A stretch of DNA of 64,000 nucleotides from Torpedo marmorata (lineage: Eukaryota), in NCBI GenBank assembly GCA_977017645.1, contig OZ360229.1:103850001-103914000 (forward strand). The letters run 5' to 3'. The notes below the pieces were generated by a model. The model did no database searches and was not told the origin of the DNA. It worked only from the letters and a program-made list of their open reading frames with translations. Positions 11,573 through 50,751 of the stretch are shown here, piece by piece. Each line of letters starts with the position of its first letter. Position 1 is the stretch's first letter. Made by a program: the position numbers and the translations under genes.

Positions 11573-11807
11573 TGATGAGCCCATCAATAACTTCAAAAGA
11601 CTAGAAGTTACACTTGAACTGAAAGGCTTTTATTAGCAAAAGAATGGAGCTACATCTGTGCTGGTAATCTGTCCAGGACTGGGGGAGGAGTGGTGGCACA
11701 ATGGCATTTATTCAGGGGGTCTGTGGGAGGAGCCACCGGGACAGTCAGCAGTGGGCATGTCCAGACATATCACCCATCCCAAAACCTATTCATAGTGGAT
11801 TACCACA
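11573..11807 (-). repeat. 3' LTR of Gypsy A
   Basis: Reads TG...CA on the minus strand and is a direct repeat of 20267-20500. Confidence 0.93.
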
Positions 11808-14185: not shown

Positions 14186-14438
14186 TGTGGTAAACCACTG
14201 TGTTTGTATTTGTGGTATGTACAGGTATTACAGGCCGGACTGATGTCTACTCCCTCCCCTCCCTTGGGTGTCCAGGTAATCCCTCCCCTTTCCTCACCTG
14301 AATAAAGGCCACTGTATCTCGGCCACCCCCTCCAGTCCGGATCTGATCGAGTAGGAAGCACGGCTTCATTCTTAGTCAATAAAAGCCTATGATTCACTTG
14401 CTCTCACAGTCTTCGAGTGATTATTGATAGGCCTATCA
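14186..14438 (+). repeat. 5' LTR of Gypsy B
   Basis: TGTGG...TATCA; TATA-like aataaagg at 14301 and AATAAA at 14378. Confidence 0.96.
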
Positions 14439-14461
14439 ATTTTATTGACTAAGTACTTCTG

Positions 14462-17400
14462 ATGGAAGGAGCACTACGGCCGGCTATCCTCGACCTCGAT
14501 CACCTAGCCCACGATGCCGGTAACGTCTTCGAACACTGGCTGCGATGTCTAGAATCGTTTATGGACACCATCGAAGCCGTAAGTGAAGCGCAACGATTGA
14601 AAGTCCTCATCTCCAGGGTGAGCTCTCGAGTGTACGTTACGATAAGAGACTGTGAAACCTACACGGGGGCTATGGATGCCCTGAGAGGAATCTACCTGTC
14701 GCCTGTCAACGGGGTCTACGCGCGATACCGGCTCTACTCCCGAATGCAGCGAGCAGGGGAATCGACCGTGGAATATGTCAGGGCCATACAGTCACTAGCA
14801 CGGGCGTGCAACTGTAAAGCCCTGACTGCTGAGGAACATTTGCGAGTGGTGGAGCGAGATGCGTTCATCATGGGGCTCAGGTCGGTATATGTGCGCCAGA
14901 GACTGCTAGAGCACGCCGACCTGGACTTTCGGGGGGCCGTAGCGATGGTCCGCACGTTGGAGACCGCGCAGCGGAACTCCGATGCCATGCAAGCTCGCGA
15001 CCCCCAGCCCGCAACGTGGTCAGCCCCATCTCCCAGCCCTGCGAACGAGATGACCGCCGCTGCCGCCATCCGTGCCGACCCGACCGCTACCGCGATCCTC
15101 ACCGCCGCTGCAGCCAGCCGCGAGCCCGAGAAGTGTTACTTCTGCGGGCTTGAGAAGCACCCGCGGAAGCGCTGCCCGGCCCGCGACGCAACTTGTTCCG
15201 GATGCGGCAGGAAAGGCCACTACGTGAAGGCCTGCCGCTCCAAGTCGCGCCCGGGTCTGAGCAGCGCCGCGTGCGAGCTGCGGGGGCAGCCATCTTACCT
15301 GAGGAGGCTTCCGGAGTCAGCCTCGTGCGAGCTGCGGGGGCAGCCATCTTACCTGCGGGAGCTTCCGGAATTGGCCTCATGCGAGCCGCGGGGGTGGCCA
15401 TCTTTGATGCTGGCACTTCCGGCGCCACCCGCGTCGGTACTTCCGGCCATACTACCGCCGCCATCTTACGGCAGCAGCAGCAGCGACACGTGCGAGCCAC
15501 GGGAGCGGCCATCTTTGTCGGCAGTAGAAGAAGATGAAGAATACATCGCAACTCTTGCCTCAGTCACCCTCGACCAGAACATCCCTCACCAGTTGTCGAG
15601 ATCCATGATGGACATTCTGGTGGAGGGACACAAAACCACCTGCCTCTTCGATACGGGCAGTACGGAGAGCTTCATCCACCCGGACACTGTCCAGCGCTGT
15701 GGCCTCACTACCATACCGGTAAGCCAGAGGGTGGCCATGGCGTCTGGGTCACACACAACAGACATCCGGGGGACTTGTGTGGCTGATATTGTTGTACAGG
15801 GGACTAAGTATAAACATTTTTCTTTATTTATAATGAATCGTTTGTGTGCACCCGTATTGTTGGGACTTGATTTTCAGAGCCACTTGCGCAGTGTTACTAT
15901 GCGGTACGATGGTCCCCACCCTGCGATCACTGTAGTCAACCACCAGTTCCATAATAATGAGCCCCAGACTACCTGTGGCCTCTCCACTCTTAAGATCTCG
16001 CCTCCGTCGTTATTCGCCAACCTGACCCCTGACTGTAAGCCTGTTGCAACCAAGAGCAGGCGATACAGTTCGGAGGACAGGGCGTTTATCAAGACGGAGG
16101 TACAGAGGTTGCTACAAGAGGGGATTATTGAAAGGAGCAATAGTCCCTGGAGGGCCCAGGTGGTTGTGGTAAAAGGGGCCAAGAGTAGGATGGTGGTGGA
16201 CTACAGTCAGACGATTAACCGGTTCACCCTGTTGGACGCATACCCGCTACCAAGAATTGCGGATATGGTTAATCAGATCGCTCAGTATAAGGTCTTTTCT
16301 ACGATTGACCTGAAGTCCGCGTACCATCAGCTCCCTATCCGTCGGGAGGACCGCCAGTACACTGCGTTCGAGGCTGACGGGAAACTGTTCCACTTCCTGC
16401 GGGTCCCGTTCGGGGTGACTAATGGTGTTTCTGTGTTCCAGCGGGAGATGAATAACATGGTAGAGGTATATAAACTTAAAGCCACCTTCCCGTATCTGGA
16501 CGATATCACCATCTGTGGGCTGGATCGCCAGGATCACGACACCAATCTCCGGAAGTTCCTGCAGGCGGCTAAAGCACTAAACCTAACATACAATAAAGAT
16601 AAATGTGTGTTCGGTACCACGCGCCTCGCTATTTTGGGGTACGTGGTAGAGAACGGGGTGATTGGGCCAGACCCCGATCGCATGCGCCCCCTACTGGAAC
16701 TTCCACTACCCTCCACCCCCAAAGCACTCAAGCGATGCCTCGGGTTCTTTTCATATTATGCACAATGGGTACCGAATTATGCAGATAAGGCCCGACCCCT
16801 GGTGAAATCCACCGTATTTCCCCTTGACTCGGAGGCACGTAAGGCTTTTGACCTTATAAAAGGGGACATTGCGCGAGCAACAATGCACGCGGTGGATGAG
16901 GAGATACCTTTCCAGGTAGAGAGTGACGCGTCGGACTTCGCGCTGGCTGCTACCCTCAACCAAGCGGGAAGGCCGGTGGCGTTTTTCTCGCGCACCCTTC
17001 AAGGCCCCGAAATTCGGCACTCCGCGGTAGAGAAAGAAGCCCAGGCCATCGTGGAAGCAATCAGGCACTGGAGGCACTATCTCGCCGGCAAGCATTTTAC
17101 CCTGCTGACCGACCAACGCTCGGTGGCATTTATGTTCAGCAACCAACAGCGGGGTAAGATCAAAAACGACAAGATCATGAGGTGGAGAATAGAACTCTCC
17201 ACCTATAACTACGACATCCTCTACCGGCCCGGGAAGCTCAATGAGCCCTCAGACGCTCTATCCCGGGGATCATGCGCCAGCGCGCAGATCGACCGATTAC
17301 ACGCCCTACAAGACCTCCTCTGTCACCCAGGAGTTACCAGGCTTTTTCACTTTGTGAAGGCACAGAACCTGCCATACTCCCTGGAGGAAGTCAGGACTTT

Positions 17401-18410
17401 GACCAGAGACTGTCAGGTTTGCGCAGAGTGCAAACCTCAGTTCTACCGCCCGGACAGGGCACAGCTGATCAAAGCCACGCGCCCCTTTGAACGTCTTAGT
17501 ATTGACTTCAAGGGGCCCCTTCCCTCCACGAACCGCAACGTGTACTTCCTAAACGTTGTTGACGAGTACTCGCGGTTCCCCTTTGCCATCCCCTGCCCCG
17601 ACACTTCAGCTACCTCAACCATAAAAGCTCTCCACCAGGTATTCGCGCTGTTTGGTTTCCCAAACTACATACATAGCGACCGGGGAGCAGCTTTTATGAG
17701 TGAGGAGCTGCGCAGGTACCTGCAGGACCGAGGCATCGCCACCAGCAGGACAACAGCATACAACCCCCGAGGAAATGGACAGGTGGAAAGGGAGAACGCT
17801 ACGGTGTGGAAGGCCGCGCTCCTAGCCCTTAAGTCAAAGGGCTGGCCGGTCTCCCGCTGGCAGGATGTTCTCCCCGAAGCCCTCCACTCTATCCCTACTA
17901 TGCACTTCCACCAACGCAACTCCTCATGAACGATTTTTTTCCTTCCCCAGGAAGTCGACCACCGGGACCTCCCTACCTGCCTGGCTTATGTCCCCGGGAC
18001 CAGTGCTGCTCCGCAACCACCTTCGGAGCAGCAAATATGAACCGACGGTTCAGAGGGTGCAGTTGGCGCACGCCAACCCCCAATATGCGTACGTGGTCTT
18101 CCCTGATGGACGAGAGGACACAGTCTCCATCCGAGACCTGGCGCCTGATGGGGCGCCAGAGGAGCATTCCGACGGGCAAGTCCACGTACTGCAAAACACA
18201 CCGCCACCCCTTCCTAACGCCCCACCCGATGTGTTAGACCCCGCCCCCTCAACGGGACCGCAAGCGTTCCGAGAGGCCAGGCAGGAGGCGACGGCACAGA
18301 CGAACCTACCACCTCCCCCATCACTAATATCTTCCCCAGCACCACAGCCCGACCCGACACTACGCAGGTCACAGCGGAAAATTCGGCCGCCGGATCGCCT
18401 GGACCTGTGA
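14462..18410 (+). CDS. gag-pol: Gypsy B Gag-Pol polyprotein; single ORF broken by one frameshift near 17890 in integrase
   Basis: The 1155-aa ORF has two CCHC-type knuckles (CYFC..H..C, CSGC..GH..C), protease LFDTGS, RT YLDD, RNase H SDAS and integrase IDFKG/HSDRG/VER. It continues in ORF 17865-18410 to PPDRLDL. Confidence 0.93.
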
Positions 18411-18498
18411 AAAGGAGGGTCTATATGTATATATATGTATTGTGTGATTAGAGTGGTCACGTCACCCCGCTGGACTCTTTCTAAAAAGGAGGGGTGAA

Positions 18499-18751
18499 TG
18501 TGGTAAACCACTGTGTTTGTATTTGTGGTATGTACAGGTATCACAGGCCGGACTGATGTCTACACCCTCCCCTCCCTTGGGTGTCCAGGTAATCCCTCCC
18601 CTTTCCTCACCTGAATAAAGGCCACTGTATCTCGGCCACCCCCTCCAGTCCGGATCTGATCGAGTAGGAAGCACGGCTTCATTCTTAGTCAATAAAAGCC
18701 TATGATTCACTTGCTCTCACAGTCTTCGAGTGATTATTGATAGGCCTATCA
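18499..18751 (+). repeat. 3' LTR of Gypsy B
   Basis: Direct repeat of 14186-14438. Confidence 0.96.
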
Positions 18752-20243: not shown

Positions 20244-20266
20244 TCTTACAATTTTGCCAATAAAAT

Positions 20267-20500
20267 TGATGAGCCCATCAATAACTCCAAAAGACTAGAA
20301 GTTACACTAGAAGTGAAAGCTTTTATTGGCAAAAGAATGGAGCTAAATCCGTGCTTATAATCTGTCCCGGTCTGGGGTAGGAGTGGTGGCACAATGGCCT
20401 TTATTCAGGGGGTCTGGGGAAGGAGCCACCGGGACAGTCAGCAGAGGGCACGTCCAGACATATCACCCATCCCACAACCTATACATAGTGGTTTACCACA
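20267..20500 (-). repeat. 5' LTR of Gypsy A
   Basis: Direct repeat of 11573-11807; gag starts immediately inside it. Confidence 0.93.
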
Positions 20501-22950: not shown

Positions 22951-24223
22951 ATGGAGGCTCAATTGAAACGACGAAAGTATGAGGCGAGTTTTAAATTAAA
23001 AGTGATAGAAATGGGCAAGAAAACCAACAACTGTGTTGCTGCAAGAAAATTTGATATATATGAGAAGTTGGTAAGAGATTGGAGGAAGAAAGAAGATATT
23101 TTAAGAAAAATACCAAAAAGGCAATGTTCGATGAGAAGAGGAATCACTCGTTGGCCAGAGTTGGAAAATCATGTTGCAGCATGGGTACGTGAACAGAGGC
23201 AAGATTGCTACATAGTCACCCAAAATAAAAGAACATTTGCACTGAAGTGGGCAAAGTCGCACCCAGAACTCAGTAATGATTTTGAAGCTACAGTAGGCTG
23301 GTGCAACCGTTTTATGAACAGGAAAAATCTGGTATTACGACAAAAAACAAAAATTGCTCAGAAACTACCAAAAGATCTTGATCATAAAGTTGTAAGTTTT
23401 CACCAGTTTATTTTACGTAACCGGCAGAAGCACCAGTTTGCATTGGCAAATATTGGAAACATGGACGAAACCCTCATGAATTTTGACATGATAGGCAATA
23501 GAACAGTGGAATGGAAAGGTGTGAAAACTGTGCAAACCAGGAGTACAGGCCATGAAAGGACCAGGTTTACTGTGCATGGCCGACGGGACAAAGTTAAGAC
23601 CCATGGTAATCTTCAAACGTAAATTTAAACCTAAAATAAAATTCCCTGCGGGTATTTTTGTACATTTTCATGAAAAAGGATGGATGGATGAAAATGGTGT
23701 AAGACTATGGATAGACAATGTGTGGAACAGGCGGCCAGGTGGTTTACGCAAGGAACGGAGTTTGCTGGTCTGGGATATGTTTCGTAGCCACTTAACTGAG
23801 AAGACTAAAAGTAGATTAGCACAACATAATACTTACATGGCGGTTATCCCGGGTGGTTTGACGTCTATATTGCAACCTCTCGATGTCTGCTTGAACAAGC
23901 CATTCAAAGACGATGTGCGTGAAGAGTGGAATACATGGATGTCGAGTGCATCGCTTGATGTGCTGTGTGACTTTGTGCTCAAGGCATGGGACAAAGTGAA
24001 AGTAGAGACTGTAATAAAATCGTTTAAAAAGTGCGGTATCTCTTGTGCAATTGATGGTACGGAAGATGATTTATTGTGGGACACTGACAACGAAGCTGAA
24101 GACGTCTCATCAGATACAGACTGGGACCCGTACGATGACTGTTTAAACAGTGAGACCCCGGATGTGCTTGCCGAGATCTTTGCCTCAGACGATGATAGCG
24201 AAAGTGATTTTGAAGGGTTCTAA
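22951..24223 (+). pseudogene. pogo transposase (Brinker-type DBD, CENP-B HTH, DD35D), frameshift near 23570
   Basis: RRKYEASFKLKVI..KLVRDWRK, WPELE..W, GWCNRFMNR, NMDET, VWD-35aa-LD(VCLNKPFK) and an acidic tail. Confidence 0.9.
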
Positions 24224-26486: not shown

Positions 26487-29400
26487 ATGGCCGCAGCAGC
26501 CACTGATACAGCAGCTACTGATATATCAGCAGCTGGCGCAGCAACCGCTGATGTTGCTGTTGAGGACCGACGTATTGAAGACATGAAGGTTACGGATATT
26601 AAAGAAGAATTGAAGCGACTGAAAAAGGACATAAGAGGAAATAAAAGGGTTCTTATCGAAAGATTGAAGCAGGCAAAGGATGAAGAGGCAGCTTCATTAA
26701 ATGAACAAGAAGATAACTTGGAAATGGCTGAAATTGTGTCAACAAATGATGAAGGAATTAAAGTGGTTGAAGATTCAAAGGATATACAATTTGAATTGAA
26801 TAAAGAGGTAAGTATGAAGACAGCATATGAACTGCAGGACGAAATACAAGCAAGTGACAGTGTCTCAATTGCTGAAAGCAGGAGAAGCAAAAGAAGTTCT
26901 GGTTCGAGCTCCAGAGTTTCTCGCACTTCAAATTATACATCGTCACGTACAAATGTTGATGTTAAATTGGCCGCTCTTCTTGCACAACAAAAAATGCTTA
27001 AGGATAAATATATTTTGGAAGAAGAGGAGGAGCAGCTAAGACAAAAGGAGAAGCAGCTAATGGAGCAGCTAAGACAAGAGAAGGAGCAACTAAGGCAGAG
27101 AAAAGAACAGCAGGAGCTAGAAGCAAACATTGCTATTTCCAAGGCAGAAAAGAAAGCAATAGAAGGCTCGATGGTATCTGGTGCTAGCAGTAAATTATCT
27201 AAATTGTCTGATAATAAAAGGTCATATTTAAAAAAGGAGTCACAGGAAAAGAAACCAACCAAAAGGATAGATATTTTAGAACCAAGGATACAAAACTTAC
27301 ATATACAAGGACAAACCTTTCAAGGGCATATTGGTATCGAGTCACATGTACCAATAGTAACATCTGAAGACAAGGCTGCGGCTTGGGTTCGGTCGAACGA
27401 AGCAGCTTCTTTGTTATATGAGACAAGAATCAGAAATATGGAAGAAACTACACCAGTGAGGTTTCCAGATACATTGCATGCAACAAGAGACAGTGAACAG
27501 AGCAATGTATTGACATCCAAGGAAAGACAAAATGAAATTGCTGCATCATTGTTTCAGTTACAGTCTCTCTCTTCTTTACCCAAAAAGGAGATACAAACCT
27601 TTGATGGTGATCCACTTCAATATCAATCATTTATGAGATCTTTCAAACGCAATATTGAATATAAATGTCAAGGTCGTGATGAATGTCTTTATTATTTGGA
27701 AATGTTTACAAAGGGACATCCAAAAGAACTGGTAAAGAGTTGTAAACAAATGTCTTCAGAAAGAGGATTAGACAAAGCTAAGGCTTTACTGGAACAATAT
27801 TTTGGCAACAAGCATCGAATTGCTTTAGCTTATATGGATAAAGCTCTTAATTGGACATCAATAAAACAAAATGATGTAAAGGCTCTGCAAGAATATACTC
27901 TGTTTTTAAGAGGATGTTGTAATGCTATGGAAGAAATCGATAATATTCGTGAGCTTGAAGTGCATAGTAATATGCGAATCATCTTAGAAAAATTATCTTA
28001 CAAGTTATGGGATAGATGGAGAAATTTGGCTTGTGATTTACAAGTAGATTACGGTCGAAAGAGTACCTTAAAGGATTTGGTAAATTTTCTTGAACGACGG
28101 GTGTACGTTGAAACAGATCCACTATATGGAAATGCCAGAGATAATTCAATGGGCAAAGATGTAAAGAAGTCTAACACACAGTCTAGTCCGAAAGTAAAAA
28201 GGAGTACCTTTGCTACTAATGTGCAAGTTATAAGTAAAGAAAAGGACAAAGTAAATAAGGAAAAGGAAAGTTTGCCTGATGAAAAGAGTTGTTTGTTCTG
28301 TAAAGGTGGACATGCTTTGGAAATGTGTTTACGATTGGAAAAGAAGGAACATAAGGAAAAGATCGCTTTCTTAAAGGAAAATGGAATATGTTTTAGCTGT
28401 TTGTGTAAAGGACACATCAGTAAAAACTGCGAGAAGCGAATTAATTGTAACATATGCAATTTGAAACATCCTAGAATTTTGCATATCCATAACAGAAACA
28501 AGGAATTGGGAAAAGAGCAAACAGAAACAAAGGAAACAACAGAAAATAATGTTATAACCTCGGTTCAGACAAGTGGTCTTACTGGGGCCGGAATGAATAA
28601 CTGCAAACTTTCAATAGTGCCTGTACAAGTCAAGGCCAAGAAAGGGGATGTAATAGTTAAAACATATGCATTTTTAGATCCAGTCAGCACTGCTTCCTTT
28701 TGCACGGAAGGACTAATGATTAAACTTAATATTCAAGGAAAAAGATCAAAAATTATGTTAAGAACAATGGGACAAGAAAAGGTTGTTGAAACTAACATTG
28801 TTTCAGGCTTAGAGGTTGCTGGATTGGATGACAAAAAAATTTGTGATCTTCTAAGTGTATATACTCAGAAGACTATGCCTGTGAATGAAGGAAATATTCC
28901 TCATCAAAGGGATATCCATCATTTAGCTTATCTGTGGAAGGTTTATTTACCTGAGATTAATTCTGAGATAGAAATGCTGATTGGTTCAGATGTGCCAAAG
29001 GTTTTGGAACCGAAAGAAGTAATAGAGAGTAAAAGGAATGGACCTTACGCTATTAGAACCAAGTTTGGTTGGACAATCAATGGACCACTGGAAAGAAATA
29101 ATGATATTGCTCAGGAACAGTTGGCGATAAATATTAATAGAATTTCGGTTGAGAAAGTTGAAGAGTTAAGCGAAGAGCAAAAAACTGTGAATAAGAAAAT
29201 CACTTTTGAAGAAAAGAAAACAGATCAATGTGAAAATAAATCAATGGTATTTAAAACAACATTGAAGGAATTAATTTCGTCAGAAATGGATGAAAGTGAA
29301 GTATTAGAAAATGTTGCAAATAATACTATTGATCATTCATGTGTAATTGAATCCAATACAGGAATAAAACAAGTGACTGAAAACAAATCTGAATGTAGAT

Positions 29401-30203
29401 TTTGTAATTCAGAGAATACAACAGACAAAGCTAACGAAGAAAGATTACAACGTGATGTAAAACTGGAAAACACAGAAAACTGTACTGATGGAATAAAGAA
29501 TATTGCGAATGATAATTTAATGCAATTGAATTCAGAGAACAAAATGTTGAAAGGGGAATTGGAAATATTAGATAATCAAGAAAACAGTAAACAGAAAGAT
29601 TTAATTGTAAGTAAAACTCGCAAAGTCAGAAAGCGGAAGAAAAGAATAACTGCTGAAGAAATGAATACAGTTATCGAGGAAAGAGATTTAGCATTATCAA
29701 AATGTAAAAGGTTGGAGGAAGAGATTAATGTTTTGAAAGAGAACAAGTTATTGGTTAATAACACAAAACAATTAACAATGCAGAAAGAATGTGATATTGC
29801 ATTGCAGAAATATAACAAACAAGACGAAGAAATTAAAAAATTTCAAGTTTGCCGCAACAGGATTGACAATGGAAATATCAATGTAGCACATGATATTTTG
29901 ACTTCAGATCAAAGTATTAATTTCTCGAAAAGAACTGAGACCGAATTGAAAGTTGCAAAATTGGATTTAGAATTGCAGGAAAGAGCCATAGAAACCAGAG
30001 TGGTTAAACAGACCTGTTTAAAATCGAAAGGATCAGATAAATATTCAAATTCTAGTTCTAAGAGTTTAAATTCTTCACATGAGAAGTGGAATACTGAAAA
30101 AAGAAATAAAGTGAAACGACATGTTGAAGAAGTGCCTTGTGTTAAATTCAAAAGAAAAACTGTATCTATTTTATCTGAGGAAGATTTGAAGTTTACTGGT
30201 TAA
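26487..30203 (+). CDS. 1238-aa chimeric polyprotein: SAP domain, BEL/Pao Gag (three Zn knuckles), aspartic protease-like domain, coiled-coil tail with MIPOL1-like segments
   Basis: The ORF is uninterrupted. SAP-like IEDMKVTDIKEELKR...GNKRVLIERLKQA; Gag LPKKEIQTFDGDPLQY..F; knuckles CLFC..H..C, CFSC..GH..C and CNIC..KH..LH; protease TYAFLDPVS..LIGSD..RTKFGWTINGP; tail RITAEEMNTVIEERDLALSKCKRLEEE. Confidence 0.85.
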   Translation: MAAAATDTAATDISAAGAATADVAVEDRRIEDMKVTDIKEELKRLKKDIRGNKRVLIERLKQAKDEEAASLNEQEDNLEMAEIVSTNDEGIKVVEDSKDIQFELNKEVSMKTAYELQDEIQASDSVSIAESRRSKRSSGSSSRVSRTSNYTSSRTNVDVKLAALLAQQKMLKDKYILEEEEEQLRQKEKQLMEQLRQEKEQLRQRKEQQELEANIAISKAEKKAIEGSMVSGASSKLSKLSDNKRSYLKKESQEKKPTKRIDILEPRIQNLHIQGQTFQGHIGIESHVPIVTSEDKAAAWVRSNEAASLLYETRIRNMEETTPVRFPDTLHATRDSEQSNVLTSKERQNEIAASLFQLQSLSSLPKKEIQTFDGDPLQYQSFMRSFKRNIEYKCQGRDECLYYLEMFTKGHPKELVKSCKQMSSERGLDKAKALLEQYFGNKHRIALAYMDKALNWTSIKQNDVKALQEYTLFLRGCCNAMEEIDNIRELEVHSNMRIILEKLSYKLWDRWRNLACDLQVDYGRKSTLKDLVNFLERRVYVETDPLYGNARDNSMGKDVKKSNTQSSPKVKRSTFATNVQVISKEKDKVNKEKESLPDEKSCLFCKGGHALEMCLRLEKKEHKEKIAFLKENGICFSCLCKGHISKNCEKRINCNICNLKHPRILHIHNRNKELGKEQTETKETTENNVITSVQTSGLTGAGMNNCKLSIVPVQVKAKKGDVIVKTYAFLDPVSTASFCTEGLMIKLNIQGKRSKIMLRTMGQEKVVETNIVSGLEVAGLDDKKICDLLSVYTQKTMPVNEGNIPHQRDIHHLAYLWKVYLPEINSEIEMLIGSDVPKVLEPKEVIESKRNGPYAIRTKFGWTINGPLERNNDIAQEQLAININRISVEKVEELSEEQKTVNKKITFEEKKTDQCENKSMVFKTTLKELISSEMDESEVLENVANNTIDHSCVIESNTGIKQVTENKSECRFCNSENTTDKANEERLQRDVKLENTENCTDGIKNIANDNLMQLNSENKMLKGELEILDNQENSKQKDLIVSKTRKVRKRKKRITAEEMNTVIEERDLALSKCKRLEEEINVLKENKLLVNNTKQLTMQKECDIALQKYNKQDEEIKKFQVCRNRIDNGNINVAHDILTSDQSINFSKRTETELKVAKLDLELQERAIETRVVKQTCLKSKGSDKYSNSSSKSLNSSHEKWNTEKRNKVKRHVEEVPCVKFKRKTVSILSEEDLKFTG

Positions 30204-41544: not shown

Positions 41545-41940
41545 GACCACCTAGGAACACCGGGTGCTATAGTTTTCTGTGAGGGGCGCTGGACAAAGTA
41601 GTGACCCTCTGTCTGCCTTATGGTAGACAAAAATTAAAGAATTTCATGTATGTTACTGATGAGCCCATCAATAACTTCAAAAGACTAGAAGTTGTACTTG
41701 AACTGAAAGGCTTTTATTAGCAAAAGAGTGGAGCTACATCCGTGCTGGTAATCTGTCCCAGACTGGGGGAGGAGTGGTGGCACAATGGCCTTTATTCAGG
41801 GGGTCTGTGGGAGGAGCCACCAGGACAGTCAGCAGAGGGCATGTCCAGACATATTACCCAGCCCAAAACCTATACATAGTGGTTTACCAGTTACATTCTA
41901 AATGTAGTATTACGTGACAATAATGGAACCTTTACCTTTA
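41545..41940 (+). mobile_element. 3' fragment of a non-coding retro-element related to 6192-6947, interrupted by a solo LTR
   Basis: Shares tctgtctgcctta...gaattt..tgta...tgacaataa and ends in an (accttt)n tail. Confidence 0.5.
41657..41889 (-). mobile_element. Solo LTR of the Gypsy A/C family
   Basis: Highly similar to 11573-11807, with TSD GTTAC (41652-41656 and 41890-41894). Confidence 0.93.
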
Positions 41941-46280: not shown

Positions 46281-49200
46281 TGTGGTAAACCACTATGTAT
46301 GGGTTGTGGGCTGGGTGATAGGTCTGGACATGCTCCTGCTGACTGTCCCGGTGGCTCCACCCACAGACCCCCTGAATAAAGGCCATTGTTCCACTGCTCC
46401 TCCCCCAGTCCGGGACAGATCACCAGCACGAATGTAGCTCCATTCTTTTGCCAATAAAAGCCTTTCAGTTCTTGTGTAACTTCTAGTCTTTTGGAGTTAT
46501 TGATGGGCTCATCAATTTTATTGGCAAAATTGTAAACATGGAGAATGTCTTGAGACCAGACAAACTGGACCTCGACCCACAAACACCGGAAGCTGGCAAT
46601 GCCTTCGAACTCTGGCTAGCCTGTTTTGAATCGTTCCTGGAGGAGATCAAAGTGCAAGAAGACGCCGCAAAATGCAAGGTTCTCCTCTCTAGTGTAAGCC
46701 CACGAGTCTATTCTATGATCCGAGATCTGCAGACTTATGAGGACGTGATGAATACCTTTAAAAGACAGTATTTACGGCCTGTGAATACAGTATATGCAAG
46801 AAACAGGCTAGCGACGCGGCAGCAGCAGCCCGGGGAGCCGAGCGTGGAGTTCGTACGGGCCCTACAAACACTCGTGCGGGCCTATGACTGCCGGGGACTG
46901 ACGGCCGAACAACACGCAGAGCTCCTAGTGAGAGTCGCTTTTGTTACAGGGACCAGGTCAGTGTATGTGCGCCAGCGGCTGCTGGAACAAGCTTACCTCA
47001 CCTTCCATTCCGCGATCGAGCTGGCCGATACGCTGGAGGCCGCGCTACAGAACTTGGATGCTATCCAGGCGCGCGATCTCCAGCAGGCTCCGTGGATGCC
47101 GCCGACCTCCCACTATGCCAGTGAATCAGCCACTGCAGCCATCAGAGGTGAACCCGAGAAATGCTATTTCTGCAGGCTTGAGAAGCACCCCCGGAAACAT
47201 TTCCCGGCCCGAGAAGCGACCTGCTCCAGCTGCGGGAAGAAAGGCCACTTCACTAAGGTCTGTAGATCAAAACCGCGAGCGGGATCGAGCAGCGCTGCGT
47301 GCGAGGCTTGGGGGCGGCCATCTTGTGTGTCGTCACTTCCATCTCCGCCATCTTACCTACCCGCGGCCGCGGCAAACACGTGCGAAGTATGGGGGCGGCC
47401 ATCTTGTGTTTCGTCACTTCCGTCGCCACCATCTTACCTACCCGCCGCCAAAACGTGCGAGTCATGGGAGCGGCCATTTTGTTCCACGCTATTGAGCCGA
47501 CACAGGGTGCCGCTATCCCGGGACAGCAAGCACTCCATCACGCCGTCGGATCAAGACAGCGACCCAACGTTGGCGTCAGTTACACTCGACCAGAGTGCAC
47601 CCTACCAACTCGCGAGGTCGATGATGGACATCCTGGTCGAGGGACACAGGACAAACTGCCTGTTCGACACAGGCAGCACAGAGAGCTTCATCCACCCTGA
47701 CACGGTACAGCGATGCGGCCTCATGACACAGCCGGTAAGCCAGAGGGTTGCCATGGCTTCCGGGTCGCACACAACAAACATCCGGGGGGGGTTGTGTAGC
47801 GACGATAGTGGTACTGGACACAGAATACCGGGACTTCACGCTATTGGTCATGCCCCGACTGTGCGCACCTGTACTACTGGGCCTCGACTTCCAGAGTCAC
47901 CTCCAAAGTGTGACGATGGAGTATGATGGGCCACTCCCACCGATTACTGTCGGTAATCACCAATTTCTTAAAAACGGCAGAAATATTTGGTCACACCACG
48001 CTACTTGTGGTCTATCCACCCTCAAGATCCCGCCCCCAACGCTATTCGCCAACTTGACCCCTGATTGTAAATCTGTGGCAACCAAAAGCAGGAGATATAG
48101 CGCAGGGGACAGGGCATTCATTAAGTCAGAGGTGCAGCGGTTACTTGGGGAAGGGATCATCGAGGCGAGCACAAGTCCCTGGAGGGCCCAGGTGGTTGTC
48201 GTCAAGAACTGGGAGAAAAACAGGATGATGGTAGATTATAGTCAGACCGTCAATAGGTTCACACAGCTTGACGCGTACCCTCTACCACGCATTGCAGATA
48301 TGGTGAACCAGATAGCTCAGTATAAGCTTTTCTCCACCATAGACCTCAAATCTGCCTACCACCAGCTCCCCATTCGCCGGGAGGACCGCCCCTACACCGC
48401 CTTCGAGGCGGACGGCAGACTCTATCATTTCCTGCGCGTTCCCTTCGGAGTCACAAATGGGGTATCCGTCTTCCAGAGGGAGATGGACAGGATGGTGGAC
48501 CAATGCAAATTAAAGGCCACTTTTCCATACTTAGATAACATCACCATCTGCGGTCACGACCGCCAGGACCACGATAACTATCTTCGGAAGTTCCTCCAGG
48601 CAACCAAAGCACTTAACCTCACCTATAACAAGGATAAGTGCATGTTCGGAACCACCCGACTCGCTATCCTGGGGTGTGTTGTGGAGAACGGGGTCATCGG
48701 CCCCGACCCCGACCGCATGCGCCCCCTGTTGGAACTACCGCTTCCCCACACCCTCAGAGCCCTCAAAAGGTGGTTGGGCTTCTTTTCTTATTATGCTCAA
48801 TGGGTCCCTAATTATGCGGACAAGGCACGCCCCCTAGTCAAGTCCACCACTTTTCCCCTTGCAACAGAGGCACGTGAGGCTTTCAGCCTCATAAAAGGGG
48901 ACATTGCCAGAGCAACAATGCACGCGGTGGACGAGTCCACTCCTTTTCAAGTAGAGAGTGACGAGTCCGACTTCGCACTGGCTGCTACCCTCAACCAGGC
49001 GGGAAGACTGGTGGCGTTCTTCTCCCGTACCCTTCAAGGCCCAGAAATTCGGCACTCGGCGGTGGAGAAAGAGGCCCAAGCCATAGTGGAAGCTATCAGG
49101 CACTGGAGGCACTATCTCGCTGGCAAAAGGTTTACCCTGCTGACTGACCAAGGCTCAGTCGCATTCATGTTCAGCAACCAGCAGCGGGGTAAAATCAAAA

Positions 49201-50751
49201 ATGATAAAATCCTGAGGTGGAGAATCGAACTCTCCACCTACAACTACAATATAATGTACCGGCCCGGGAAGCTCAATGAGCCCTCCGATGCTCTATCCCG
49301 GGGGATGTGCGCTAGCGCACAGATCGACCGGTTATATGCCCTCCACTGTGACCTCTGCCACCCCGGAGTCACCCGGCTTTTTCACTTTGTGAAAGCCCGT
49401 AATTTACCGTACTCCCTGGAAGAGGTCAGGACAATGACCAGCAGCTGCCAAATCTGCGCGGAGTGCAAACCGCACTTCTACCGTCCTGACAAGGCACAGT
49501 TGATAAAAGCAACCTGCCCATTTGAGCGACTAAGCGTCGAATTTAAGGGCCCCCTTCCCTCCACCGACCGCAATGTGTTCTTCCTCAACGTTATTGATGA
49601 GTACTCGCGGTTCCCTTTCGCCATTCCCTGCCCCGATACCACTACCACCTCAGTCATAAAGGCCCTCCGCAAACTCTTCACATTGTTTGGATACCCCTGC
49701 TATATCCATAGCGACCGAGGGTCCTCGTTTATGAGTGACGAGCTGCGACAATACCTGCTGGCCAAGGGTATCGCGACTAGCAGGACCACGAGCTATAACC
49801 CACGGGGTAATGTACAAGTGGAGAGGGAGAATGCCACGGTCTGGAAAGCCACACTCTTAGCCCTCAGGTCTAAGGGATAACAGTCTCCCGCTGGCAAGAA
49901 GTCCTTCCCGAGGCACTCCACTACATCCGATCCCTGCTATGTACGTCCACCAATGCTACACCTCATGAGAGACTCTTTTCCTTCCCCAGGAAGTCGACCA
50001 CCGGGACTACCCTACCAGCATGGCTGACGTTTTTCAAGGCCAGTGCTGCTCCGGAAACATGTCAGGAGCAACAAATACGCCCCGATGGTCGAGAGGGTCC
50101 AATTAGTACACGCGAACCCCCAGTACGCCTACGTGGTTTTTCGTGATGGGCGGGAAGACACAGTCTCCATCCGGGACCTGGCGCCCGCAGGAGCACTGGG
50201 ACCCGCCACTGCCCTCGAACACTCCGTAGTTACTGTTACCCCCTTACCTACCATTAAGGACACATAAGAGGCACCAACCAATTCAAACATGACACCAAAC
50301 GTACTGGCATATTCATCCGAGGTTTCGCGATCGCCAGACGTGCCGGTACCCCAGATCAGGCAGGAGGCAGCACCGCCACCTGCCCCATCACCACAAGTAC
50401 TGCGCCGATCACAGCAGCGGACTCGACCGCCTGATCGACTCGATTTGTAATTTTAATTCTTTGTAAATATTGTTATACCCTTCACCCCGCTGGACTCTTT
50501 TAAAAAGGAGGGGTGAATGTGGTAAACCACTATGTATGGGTTGTGGGCTGGGTGATAGGTCTGGACATGCCCCTGCTGACTGTCCCGGTGGCTCCTCCCA
50601 CAGACCCCCTGAATAAAGGCCATTGTGCCACTGCTCCTCCCCCAGTCCGGGACAGATCACCAGCACGAATGTAGCTCCATTCTTTTGTCAATAAAAGCCT
50701 TTCAGTTCTTGTGTAACTTCTAGTCTTTTGGAGTTATTGATGGGCTCATCA
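46281..50751 (+). mobile_element. Gypsy LTR retrotransposon C (same family as A), full length
   Basis: The 234-bp LTRs 46281-46514 and 50518-50751 have 4 mismatches. The TSD is CCTAT (46276-46280 and 50752-50756), and a PPT precedes 50518. Confidence 0.97.
46538..50450 (+). pseudogene. gag-pol: Gypsy C gag-pol with frameshifts (G8 run at 47784-47791; near 49880; near 50030) and a late stop
   Basis: ORFs 46538-47926, 47748-49880 and 50043-50267 carry LFDTGS, YLDN, HPG..CQIC, IHSDRG and PPDRLDL. Confidence 0.92.

Follow-up and report, generated by a model that had tools for sequence, protein, structure and literature searches.

Three Gypsy copies of Torpedo marmorata, here called A, B and C, carry a 14-nt site at the primer-binding position behind the 5' LTR that is exactly complementary to a segment (the arm) of the same LTR. 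Comparable stems precede gag in most families of a group of Gypsy elements without a chromodomain. Comparison of these sequences makes it very likely that the elements prime reverse transcription with their own RNA, in one geometry or another. Probably, the primer carries a long capped leader, so that the arm is internal to the RNA.

Arm-site pairing in the elements of the window

The window, a stretch of 64,000 nucleotides, contains the three elements listed in Table 1, the LTR ends of which were set from the 3' LTR copies and the target-site duplications (TSDs). The initial annotation had described exact arm-site complementarity for B and C and, on the minus strand, for A. All three pairings were recomputed and were reproduced base for base, so that the observation is confirmed. 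The junctions have the same order in A, B and C: the terminal CA of the LTR, a single A, the 14-nt site, 8 nt, and the gag ATG. The distance of about 8 nt to the ATG and the absence of TGG after any 5' LTR, both noted before, also hold for the window copies. The two families had been said to differ in both partners and still to pair at 14 of 14 positions. This is correct, but A and C belong to one family (about 90% identity) and, therefore, the window yields two independent comparisons and not three. The LTRs of B and C are 74% alike.

In one respect the annotation had to be revised. Variants in other LTR copies had been read as C>T changes that are compatible with G-U pairing. These variants are located in 3' or solo LTRs, and the arm variant TTTTGCT marks a subfamily whose site, AGCAAAA, matches it and which was found in 10 of 76 family C copies. 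Because of this matched site no G-U pair is needed, and the G-U reading of the 3' LTR variants was rejected.

Table 1. Positions of the elements A, B and C and of their features in the window.
Feature	Position	Strand	Remarks
Element B, whole	14186-18751	+	5' LTR 14186-14438, 3' LTR 18499-18751, TSD TGCCC
B 5' LTR, 253 nt, TG...CA	14186-14438	+	99.2% identity to 18499-18751; TSD TGCCC
B TATA-like block TGAATAAAGGCC (putative function)	14299-14310	+	33 nt 5' of the initiator A
B initiator-like CCAGTCC; RNA predicted to begin at the A at 14334	14332-14338	+	identity of B and C; stops of aberrant copies
B predicted leader, 37 nt, preceding the arm	14334-14370	+	part of the predicted primer
B arm CTTAGTCAATAAAA, contains AATAAA	14371-14384	+	exact complement of the site; predicted 3' end of the primer
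B inner helix, GCCTAT (14385-14390) with ATAGGC (14427-14432)	14385-14432	+	begins at the first post-arm base
B lone unpaired A separating the LTR from the site	14439	+	LTR boundary; predicted first templated base
B primer-binding position TTTTATTGACTAAG, without TGG	14440-14453	+	exact complement of the arm
B gag-pol: two CCHC knuckles, PR, RT, RNase H, integrase; without chromodomain	14462-18410	+	
B polypurine tract (PPT)	18483-18498	+	
B 3' LTR	18499-18751	+	TSD follows; no site after it
Element C, whole	46281-50751	+	LTRs 98.3% identical; TSD CCTAT
C 5' LTR, 234 nt	46281-46514	+	98.3% identity to 50518-50751
C TATA-like block; initiator-like block with A at 46407	46373-46384; 46405-46411	+	shared with B
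C arm TTTTGCCAATAAAA	46446-46459	+	exact complement of the C site
C primer-binding position TTTTATTGGCAAAA	46516-46529	+	gag ATG at 46538
C 3' LTR, arm variant TTTTGTC	50518-50751	+	no site after it
Element A, whole, family C	20500-11573	-	B nested inside
A 5' LTR (family C)	20267-20500	-	arm 20334-20321
A primer-binding position	20252-20265	-	exact complement of the A arm
A 3' LTR, arm variant TTTTGCT	11573-11807	-	91.9% identity to the A 5' LTR

The young element B is inserted in the opposite orientation into the older element A, and the two diverged LTRs of A carry arms of different subfamilies. The gag-pol frame of B is disrupted close to the end of the integrase. A solo LTR of family C is located at 41657-41889 on the minus strand; it lacks its first two bases and has GTAAC repeats on either side. 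The host genome comprises 6.2 Gb, and a first-look count gave 63,341 gag candidates of this abundant family. Two further features of the window are an ORF of 1238 aa with SAP and DUF1759 domains (26487-30203), which lies between direct repeats about 5.1 kb apart and is BEL/Pao-like without an RT, and, at 22951-24223, two transposase ORFs that we take to be pogo/Tigger-like, with a 32-nt tandem repeat after them.

Joint change of arm and site within family C

Family C was sampled at 90 of 150 places listed by a gag-protein search that was blind to the LTR, and both arms could be aligned in 76 copies. Full pairing at 14 of 14 positions was found in 62 of the 76 copies, which represent six haplotypes; for copies of B, also picked by gag, the value was 28 of 30. 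The changes in family C include flips between A-T and T-A, which cannot proceed via G-U, and G-U occurs rarely, in 3 cells across the 14 paired positions. In locus L323, a private double change is present in the 5' LTR, in the 3' LTR and in the site. The LTRs of locus L337 are unlike, and its site matches the arm of the 5' LTR rather than that of the 3' LTR.

Covariation was tested with a 23-row alignment of family C. In this alignment 99.4% of the cells were paired, compared with 36-54% in slid controls. The covariation score was attained by none of 500 shuffles, a test that is inflated by relatedness and in which two of five measures stayed within the shuffles. Arm and site track each other over 14 nt and no further: at position 15, the C of the LTR is met by T (47), G (19) or C (7). 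In family C, 0 of 7 positions are variable in the initiator block and 1 of 12 in the TATA-like block, compared with 4 of 7 in the outer arm.

Stems before gag in a widespread group

With an alignment of 40 proteins as query, the best 80 of 522 metagenome loci and 8 GTDB loci were selected. The gag start was present in 52 of these 88 loci; three with too little upstream DNA were removed and the three window copies were added, resulting again in 52. The 176 nt before gag were searched for a perfect stem of at least 10 bp. Among the matches listed, 44 of the 52 loci contained such a stem, versus 0 of 149 coding control windows. In dinucleotide-shuffled versions of the upstream sequences the longest stem averaged 6-8 bp, and the best of 12 shuffles got to 10 bp in 11 of the 52 loci. 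The mean stem length in the shuffles and the empty control windows led us to reject chance pairing.

Clustering at 75% gag identity yielded 29 families among the matches listed, with RT-RH identities to B of about 47-66%. In 23 of the 29 families a stem of at least 10 bp, each time of a different sequence, was found before gag. The pairing is widespread within the group; the initial annotation had let its interpretation depend on conservation across the clade. The stems are 11-19 bp long, and over pairs 5-12 no arm matched the site of another family (0 of 506 cross comparisons).

The inner edge of the helix is fixed across the families, with AAA|RCC in the LTR and CA-A|TTT at the junction: RCC comes directly after the arm in 18 of 23 families, and CAA is followed by TTT at the junction in 19 of 23. 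The position just inward of the helix is paired in none of the 23 families. An unpaired inner position together with RCC is as expected of a cut site. In loci that have both LTRs, the start of the site mostly lies 0-2 nt past the aligned LTR end. TGG at the junction, the mark of a tRNA-primed Gypsy element, was found in 0 of the 23 families having a stem. A second helix of at least 4 bp that starts at the first post-arm base is present in 19 of 23 families, compared with an average of 7.3 and at most 13 in shuffles. TG...CA ends and PPT-GAA|TG recur among the relatives.

A stem of at least 10 bp is absent from 6 of the 29 families. In five of them it appears to be decayed or interrupted by one mismatch; the sixth, L079 (RT-RH identity 56%), has no stem before gag at all. 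L079 carries a TGG about 30 nt 5' of the ATG, and it could be truncated or a tRNA-primed exception. In the distant families L071, L089, L091, L064 and L102 the site directly adjoins the gag ATG or overlaps with it, an arrangement in which the primer helix could gate translation.

The closest named proteins are from rays and sharks, and further named relatives are from a sea anemone, nematodes and a damselfly. No relative was found among viral contigs, and tblastn gave no phage match. The N-terminus of a ray gag had no match at E 1e-30 in this genome. Elements of the group in GTDB contigs filed as bacterial (L141-L147) are most likely misbinned eukaryotic DNA.

The predicted RNA start and run-on junctions

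The TATA-like block TGAATAAAGGCC is identical in B and C, and so is CCAGTCC, which follows 32-33 nt further on. The initiator consensus is YYANWYY. We consider it likely that the RNA starts at this upstream initiator, 37-39 nt before the arm. The initial annotation had predicted this start, to which aberrant copies that terminate at the initiator lend indirect support.

Such copies were found by searching this genome for junctions at which the site continues as the complement of the pre-arm bases; reversed control patterns gave 0 matches. In a first set 87 loci were mapped, 58 of which run through to the LTR start. The other 29 end inside the LTR and represent 27 independent events, 7 of which terminate within +1 to -2 of the initiator A. 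Three of the four first-set switches onto a plus-sense template stop at the initiator. For a replication the window from +1 to -2 was fixed beforehand and 40 of 43 new one-mismatch places among the matches listed were fetched; 3 places that resembled no family were dropped. Seven of the new copies end inside the LTR, one within the window and one at +3 (p 0.16 alone), and two further copies extend past the initiator. Combined, 8 of 34 independent junctions lie within +1 to -2 (uniform p about 2e-6, local p 0.003), with L242 scored at +5, outside the window, and with L214/L215 and L237/L258 each counted as one event. The 37 positions of the leader contain 23 junction ends and the 122 positions beyond it 11, a density about seven times higher in the leader. 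A second cluster at +31 to +34 coincides with the detection floor of the search.

Individual copies illustrate the run-ons. L353 and L361 have otherwise normal 5' ends with 5-7 extra bases copied from the leader, and in L210 and L215 a PPT-preceded 3' LTR is followed by A, the site and a leader copy. Against the upstream start speak the microhomology of 4-6 nt at several junctions and the acceptor that L203 and L373 share. A run of C lies immediately upstream of the initiator; reverse transcriptases may pause at C-runs, which could account for part of the pile-up. The 58 read-throughs among 87 loci indicate that template switching at the inverted repeat takes place without a stop at the initiator. 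In the distant families, a conserved leader length was not evident by eye.

These results bear on the most serious alternative, the classic geometry of Tf1. In that case the RNA would begin at the arm or no more than a few bases away from it, the primer would be about 14-17 nt long, and the upstream TATA-like and initiator-like blocks would serve another transcript or none. A 14-nt primer would be the simpler explanation for the halt of tracking at 14 nt in family C, the stem lengths of the families fit it, and plus-strand transfer would pose no flap problem. In addition, run-ons of 1-3 nt in copies of B reach no further than the A of TCATT, which is itself initiator-like. However, this geometry does not predict that eight aberrant copies end at the upstream initiator, that ends are so much denser in the leader, or that TATA-like and initiator blocks are conserved at a spacing of 32-33 nt, and no TATA-like block was seen 30 nt before the arm. 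We regard it as unlikely.

It is considerably less likely that the arm acts from elsewhere, either from the 3' R copy of the same or of a second genomic RNA or, in trans, from a solo-LTR transcript. Five loci (L211, L221, L231, L233 and L270) that read from the site through U3, the PPT and internal sequence in reverse would agree with such an origin, but these long read-throughs are also explained by mis-transfer of the plus strong-stop end. A 3' R primer offers no reason for stops at the initiator, and the site of L337 follows the 5' LTR arm; L337 alone is not decisive.

A further type of rearrangement was observed in 18 of 57 read-through loci, in which the LTR carries a template-switch patch: the arm is followed by 6-36 bases of the LTR 3' end in reverse, and the sequence then resumes at GCCT. 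Patched LTRs were seen in L204, L219, L228, L230, L238, L239, L244, L246, L247, L249, L251, L253, L257, L272 and L277, and many of them are solo with a TSD of their own. As they recur across subfamilies, they were probably formed during reverse transcription, and they look as if the priming step had been preserved in the genome. Near-palindromic sequence is present at the predicted 5' end of the RNA (14335-14342; 46408-46416), with GTCCGGAC in B subfamilies and GTCC-N-GGAC in C, and might be a dimerization contact.

The poly(A) signal and RNA folding

Folding predictions gave an unpaired probability of the hexamer in B and C of 0.00-0.01 in the 5' context versus 0.70-0.75 in the 3' context. 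The z-scores for folding of the whole leader are modest (-1.6 and -2.2) and were not counted as evidence. The polyA hairpin of HIV-1 is a precedent for hiding a 5' poly(A) signal. In B and C, concealment of the 5' AAUAAA by the arm-site helix may be a side benefit of secondary importance. Among the arms of the 23 families, 10 contain AATAAA, 6 ATTAAA and 7 neither. Because these 7 arms still pair, masking cannot account for the pairing in general. In L084 the helix is kept with TGAAGA/TCTTCA and covaries through the hexamer itself. Masking at the 5' end alone, as put forward in the initial annotation, is predicted for B and C, but it is not the feature that is conserved across the group.

One could also assume that hiding the 5' poly(A) signal is all that the helix does, that its exactness is due to selection or to template-switch conversion, and that priming occurs by other means. 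The predicted closed and open states of the hexamer, its presence in 16 of 23 arms in one of the two forms, and the template-switch patches at this repeat in 18 loci would be in line with this assumption. It is nevertheless highly improbable, because pairing is intact in the arms that lack both hexamers, the helix is fixed to the LTR end to the base and at the sole place for a primer to bind, and the pairs remain Watson-Crick without a drift to G-U.

The 3' end of the B LTR (14425-14438) forms a perfect 14-nt palindrome, TGATAGGCCTATCA, and an imperfect one is present in C (46499-46516). The palindrome competes with the inner helix, and it recalls the retroviral U5-IR stem.

The proposed priming mechanism

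The initial annotation had suggested self-priming and/or masking of the poly(A) signal. Self-priming is well supported by the fixed geometry at the start of the minus strand, by the lack of TGG in all 23 families and by compensatory change both across and within families; masking as the general reason for the pairing was abandoned. That a tRNA fragment or another host small RNA binds the site, with the LTR match being incidental, is close to refuted. Half-tRNA priming without TGG is described for some copia lineages in the consulted part of PMC6317226, but six site haplotypes of family C and the sites of 23 families each match their own LTR, which a constant host RNA cannot follow, and no Rfam match was found at E up to 1.

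In the mechanism that we propose, the RNA would start at the initiator 37-39 nt upstream of the arm and would fold such that the arm lies on the site, adjoining the inner helix that begins right after the arm. A cut at AAUAAAA|GCC, presumably by the RNase H of the element as in Tf1, would generate a capped primer of 51-53 nt, composed of the paired 14-base 3' end and a 5' extension of 37-39 nt. Extension would begin opposite the lone A that follows the LTR, and strand transfer could proceed via the R bases between the cut and the poly(A) site. The plus strand would then copy the arm of the primer and thereby rewrite the site in every cycle, which would explain why arm and site change together. 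It would be limited to 14 of the 51-53 nt of the primer; a stall at a leader hairpin or trimming of a flap are our guesses for the reason. In B, a computed fold places a small hairpin at 14355-14367 within the predicted leader; in several C subfamilies a leader hairpin is weak.

Only tentatively do we advance the full picture, namely a widespread group of non-chromovirus Gypsy elements that would use a capped leader of about 50 nt as primer with its last 14 bases at the site, in which the helix would close the 5' poly(A) signal, arm and site would form one templated unit, and the RNA start would be recorded in failed insertions.

Classification and comparison with known systems

The Pfam domains of the single gag-pol are arranged in the Gypsy order (PR 384-471, RT 574-728, RH 789-915, rve 1006-1102), and the best PDB match is Ty3 Gag-Pol. 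By domain order, TG...CA LTRs, PPT and TSDs, which lie within the 4-6 bp expected, the elements belong to Ty3/Gypsy (Metaviridae). No Chromo domain was found at E up to 0.01 in the tail ORF of B or in 6 of 6 full-length relatives, nor is it among the domains listed for 120 relatives. Two CCHC knuckles are present in B (225-238 and 245-258) and in 83 of the 120 relatives. The group probably works like Tf1, but it is not filed as Tf1/sushi because it has two CCHC knuckles and no chromodomain; its LTRs of 150-300 nt also set it apart from the Tf1/sushi chromoviruses.

According to the consulted parts of three sources (PMC7175516, bioRxiv 2022.12.06.519325, PMC11042837), Tf1 has no tRNA site, and an LTR segment pairs at the site after the 5' LTR, next to an adjoining helix. 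Tf1 and Tf2 of Schizosaccharomyces pombe and the Tf1/sushi elements thus share with the present group a site complementary to their own 5' LTR. Within the same parts of the literature, the Tf1 primer comprises the first 11 nt of the RNA, whereas the arm of the present group has 11-19 nt. In B and C it is preceded by 37-39 nt of the predicted RNA, and the poly(A) hexamer is located at its end. Of the three duplexes of the "pretzel" described for Tf1, which has two helices beside the site, the central duplex and one inner helix, starting right after the arm, were seen here in 19 of 23 families. Tf1 cDNA often retains the site sequence on its 3' end, derived from the copied primer (PMC11042837, in part).

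For Tcn1 chromoviruses and TAR copia elements, self-priming was predicted, as here, from an LTR-site match of at least 10 bp; these are plant and fungal lineages, and the consulted part of PMC6317226 gives no start mapping, internal arm or poly(A) overlap. The Skipper elements, dictyostelid chromoviruses, have a pyrimidine-rich stretch and no TGG after the LTR; in the part of PMC5006619 consulted they are described as being without a complementary LTR region, whereas the region found here is exact.

Two further lineages were compared by description. Cigr-1 combines a SURL-like gag with 245-bp LTRs and a single ORF of 3.6 kb, and our group may resemble it. The Cigr-1 clade is named in the part of PMC6238403 consulted. 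Two CCHC arrays, as in this group, are usual in the Mag lineage according to the part of PMC2577118 consulted. Self-priming is assigned to neither the Mag nor the Cigr-1 clade in the sections of the literature that were searched. Three motifs of the group had no match in the searched supplements of PMC6238403 (five files, apart from a picture PDF) and PMC8556966 (apart from files 11, 13 and 14). Two named candidates were dropped, Barthez for its length of 7.3-8.8 kb (table of PMC11117352, seen in part) and Saci2 for its use of tRNA sites. No description of this priming variant was found in the literature searched, which was accessible in part and beyond which lay most subscription papers, Repbase and GyDB.

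Implications

Annotation tools that require a tRNA site will mislabel elements of this kind. Failed insertions can be used as a record of the RNA start where RNA data are absent. A primer with a long leader raises a question of enzymology, namely how the reverse transcriptase cuts at an internal arm and the plus strand halts after 14 nt. In the portions of the literature searched, Gypsy self-priming is linked with the Tf1/sushi chromoviruses, and its primer is the very 5' end of the RNA. If our interpretation is true, a second, chromodomain-less group is self-priming, and tRNA-free priming either arose again or is older than assumed. This bears on whether hairpin priming preceded tRNA priming, a question raised in the consulted part of PMC3601003. 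For Torpedo marmorata it would mean that an abundant family of retrotransposons is beyond the reach of silencing by tRNA fragments.
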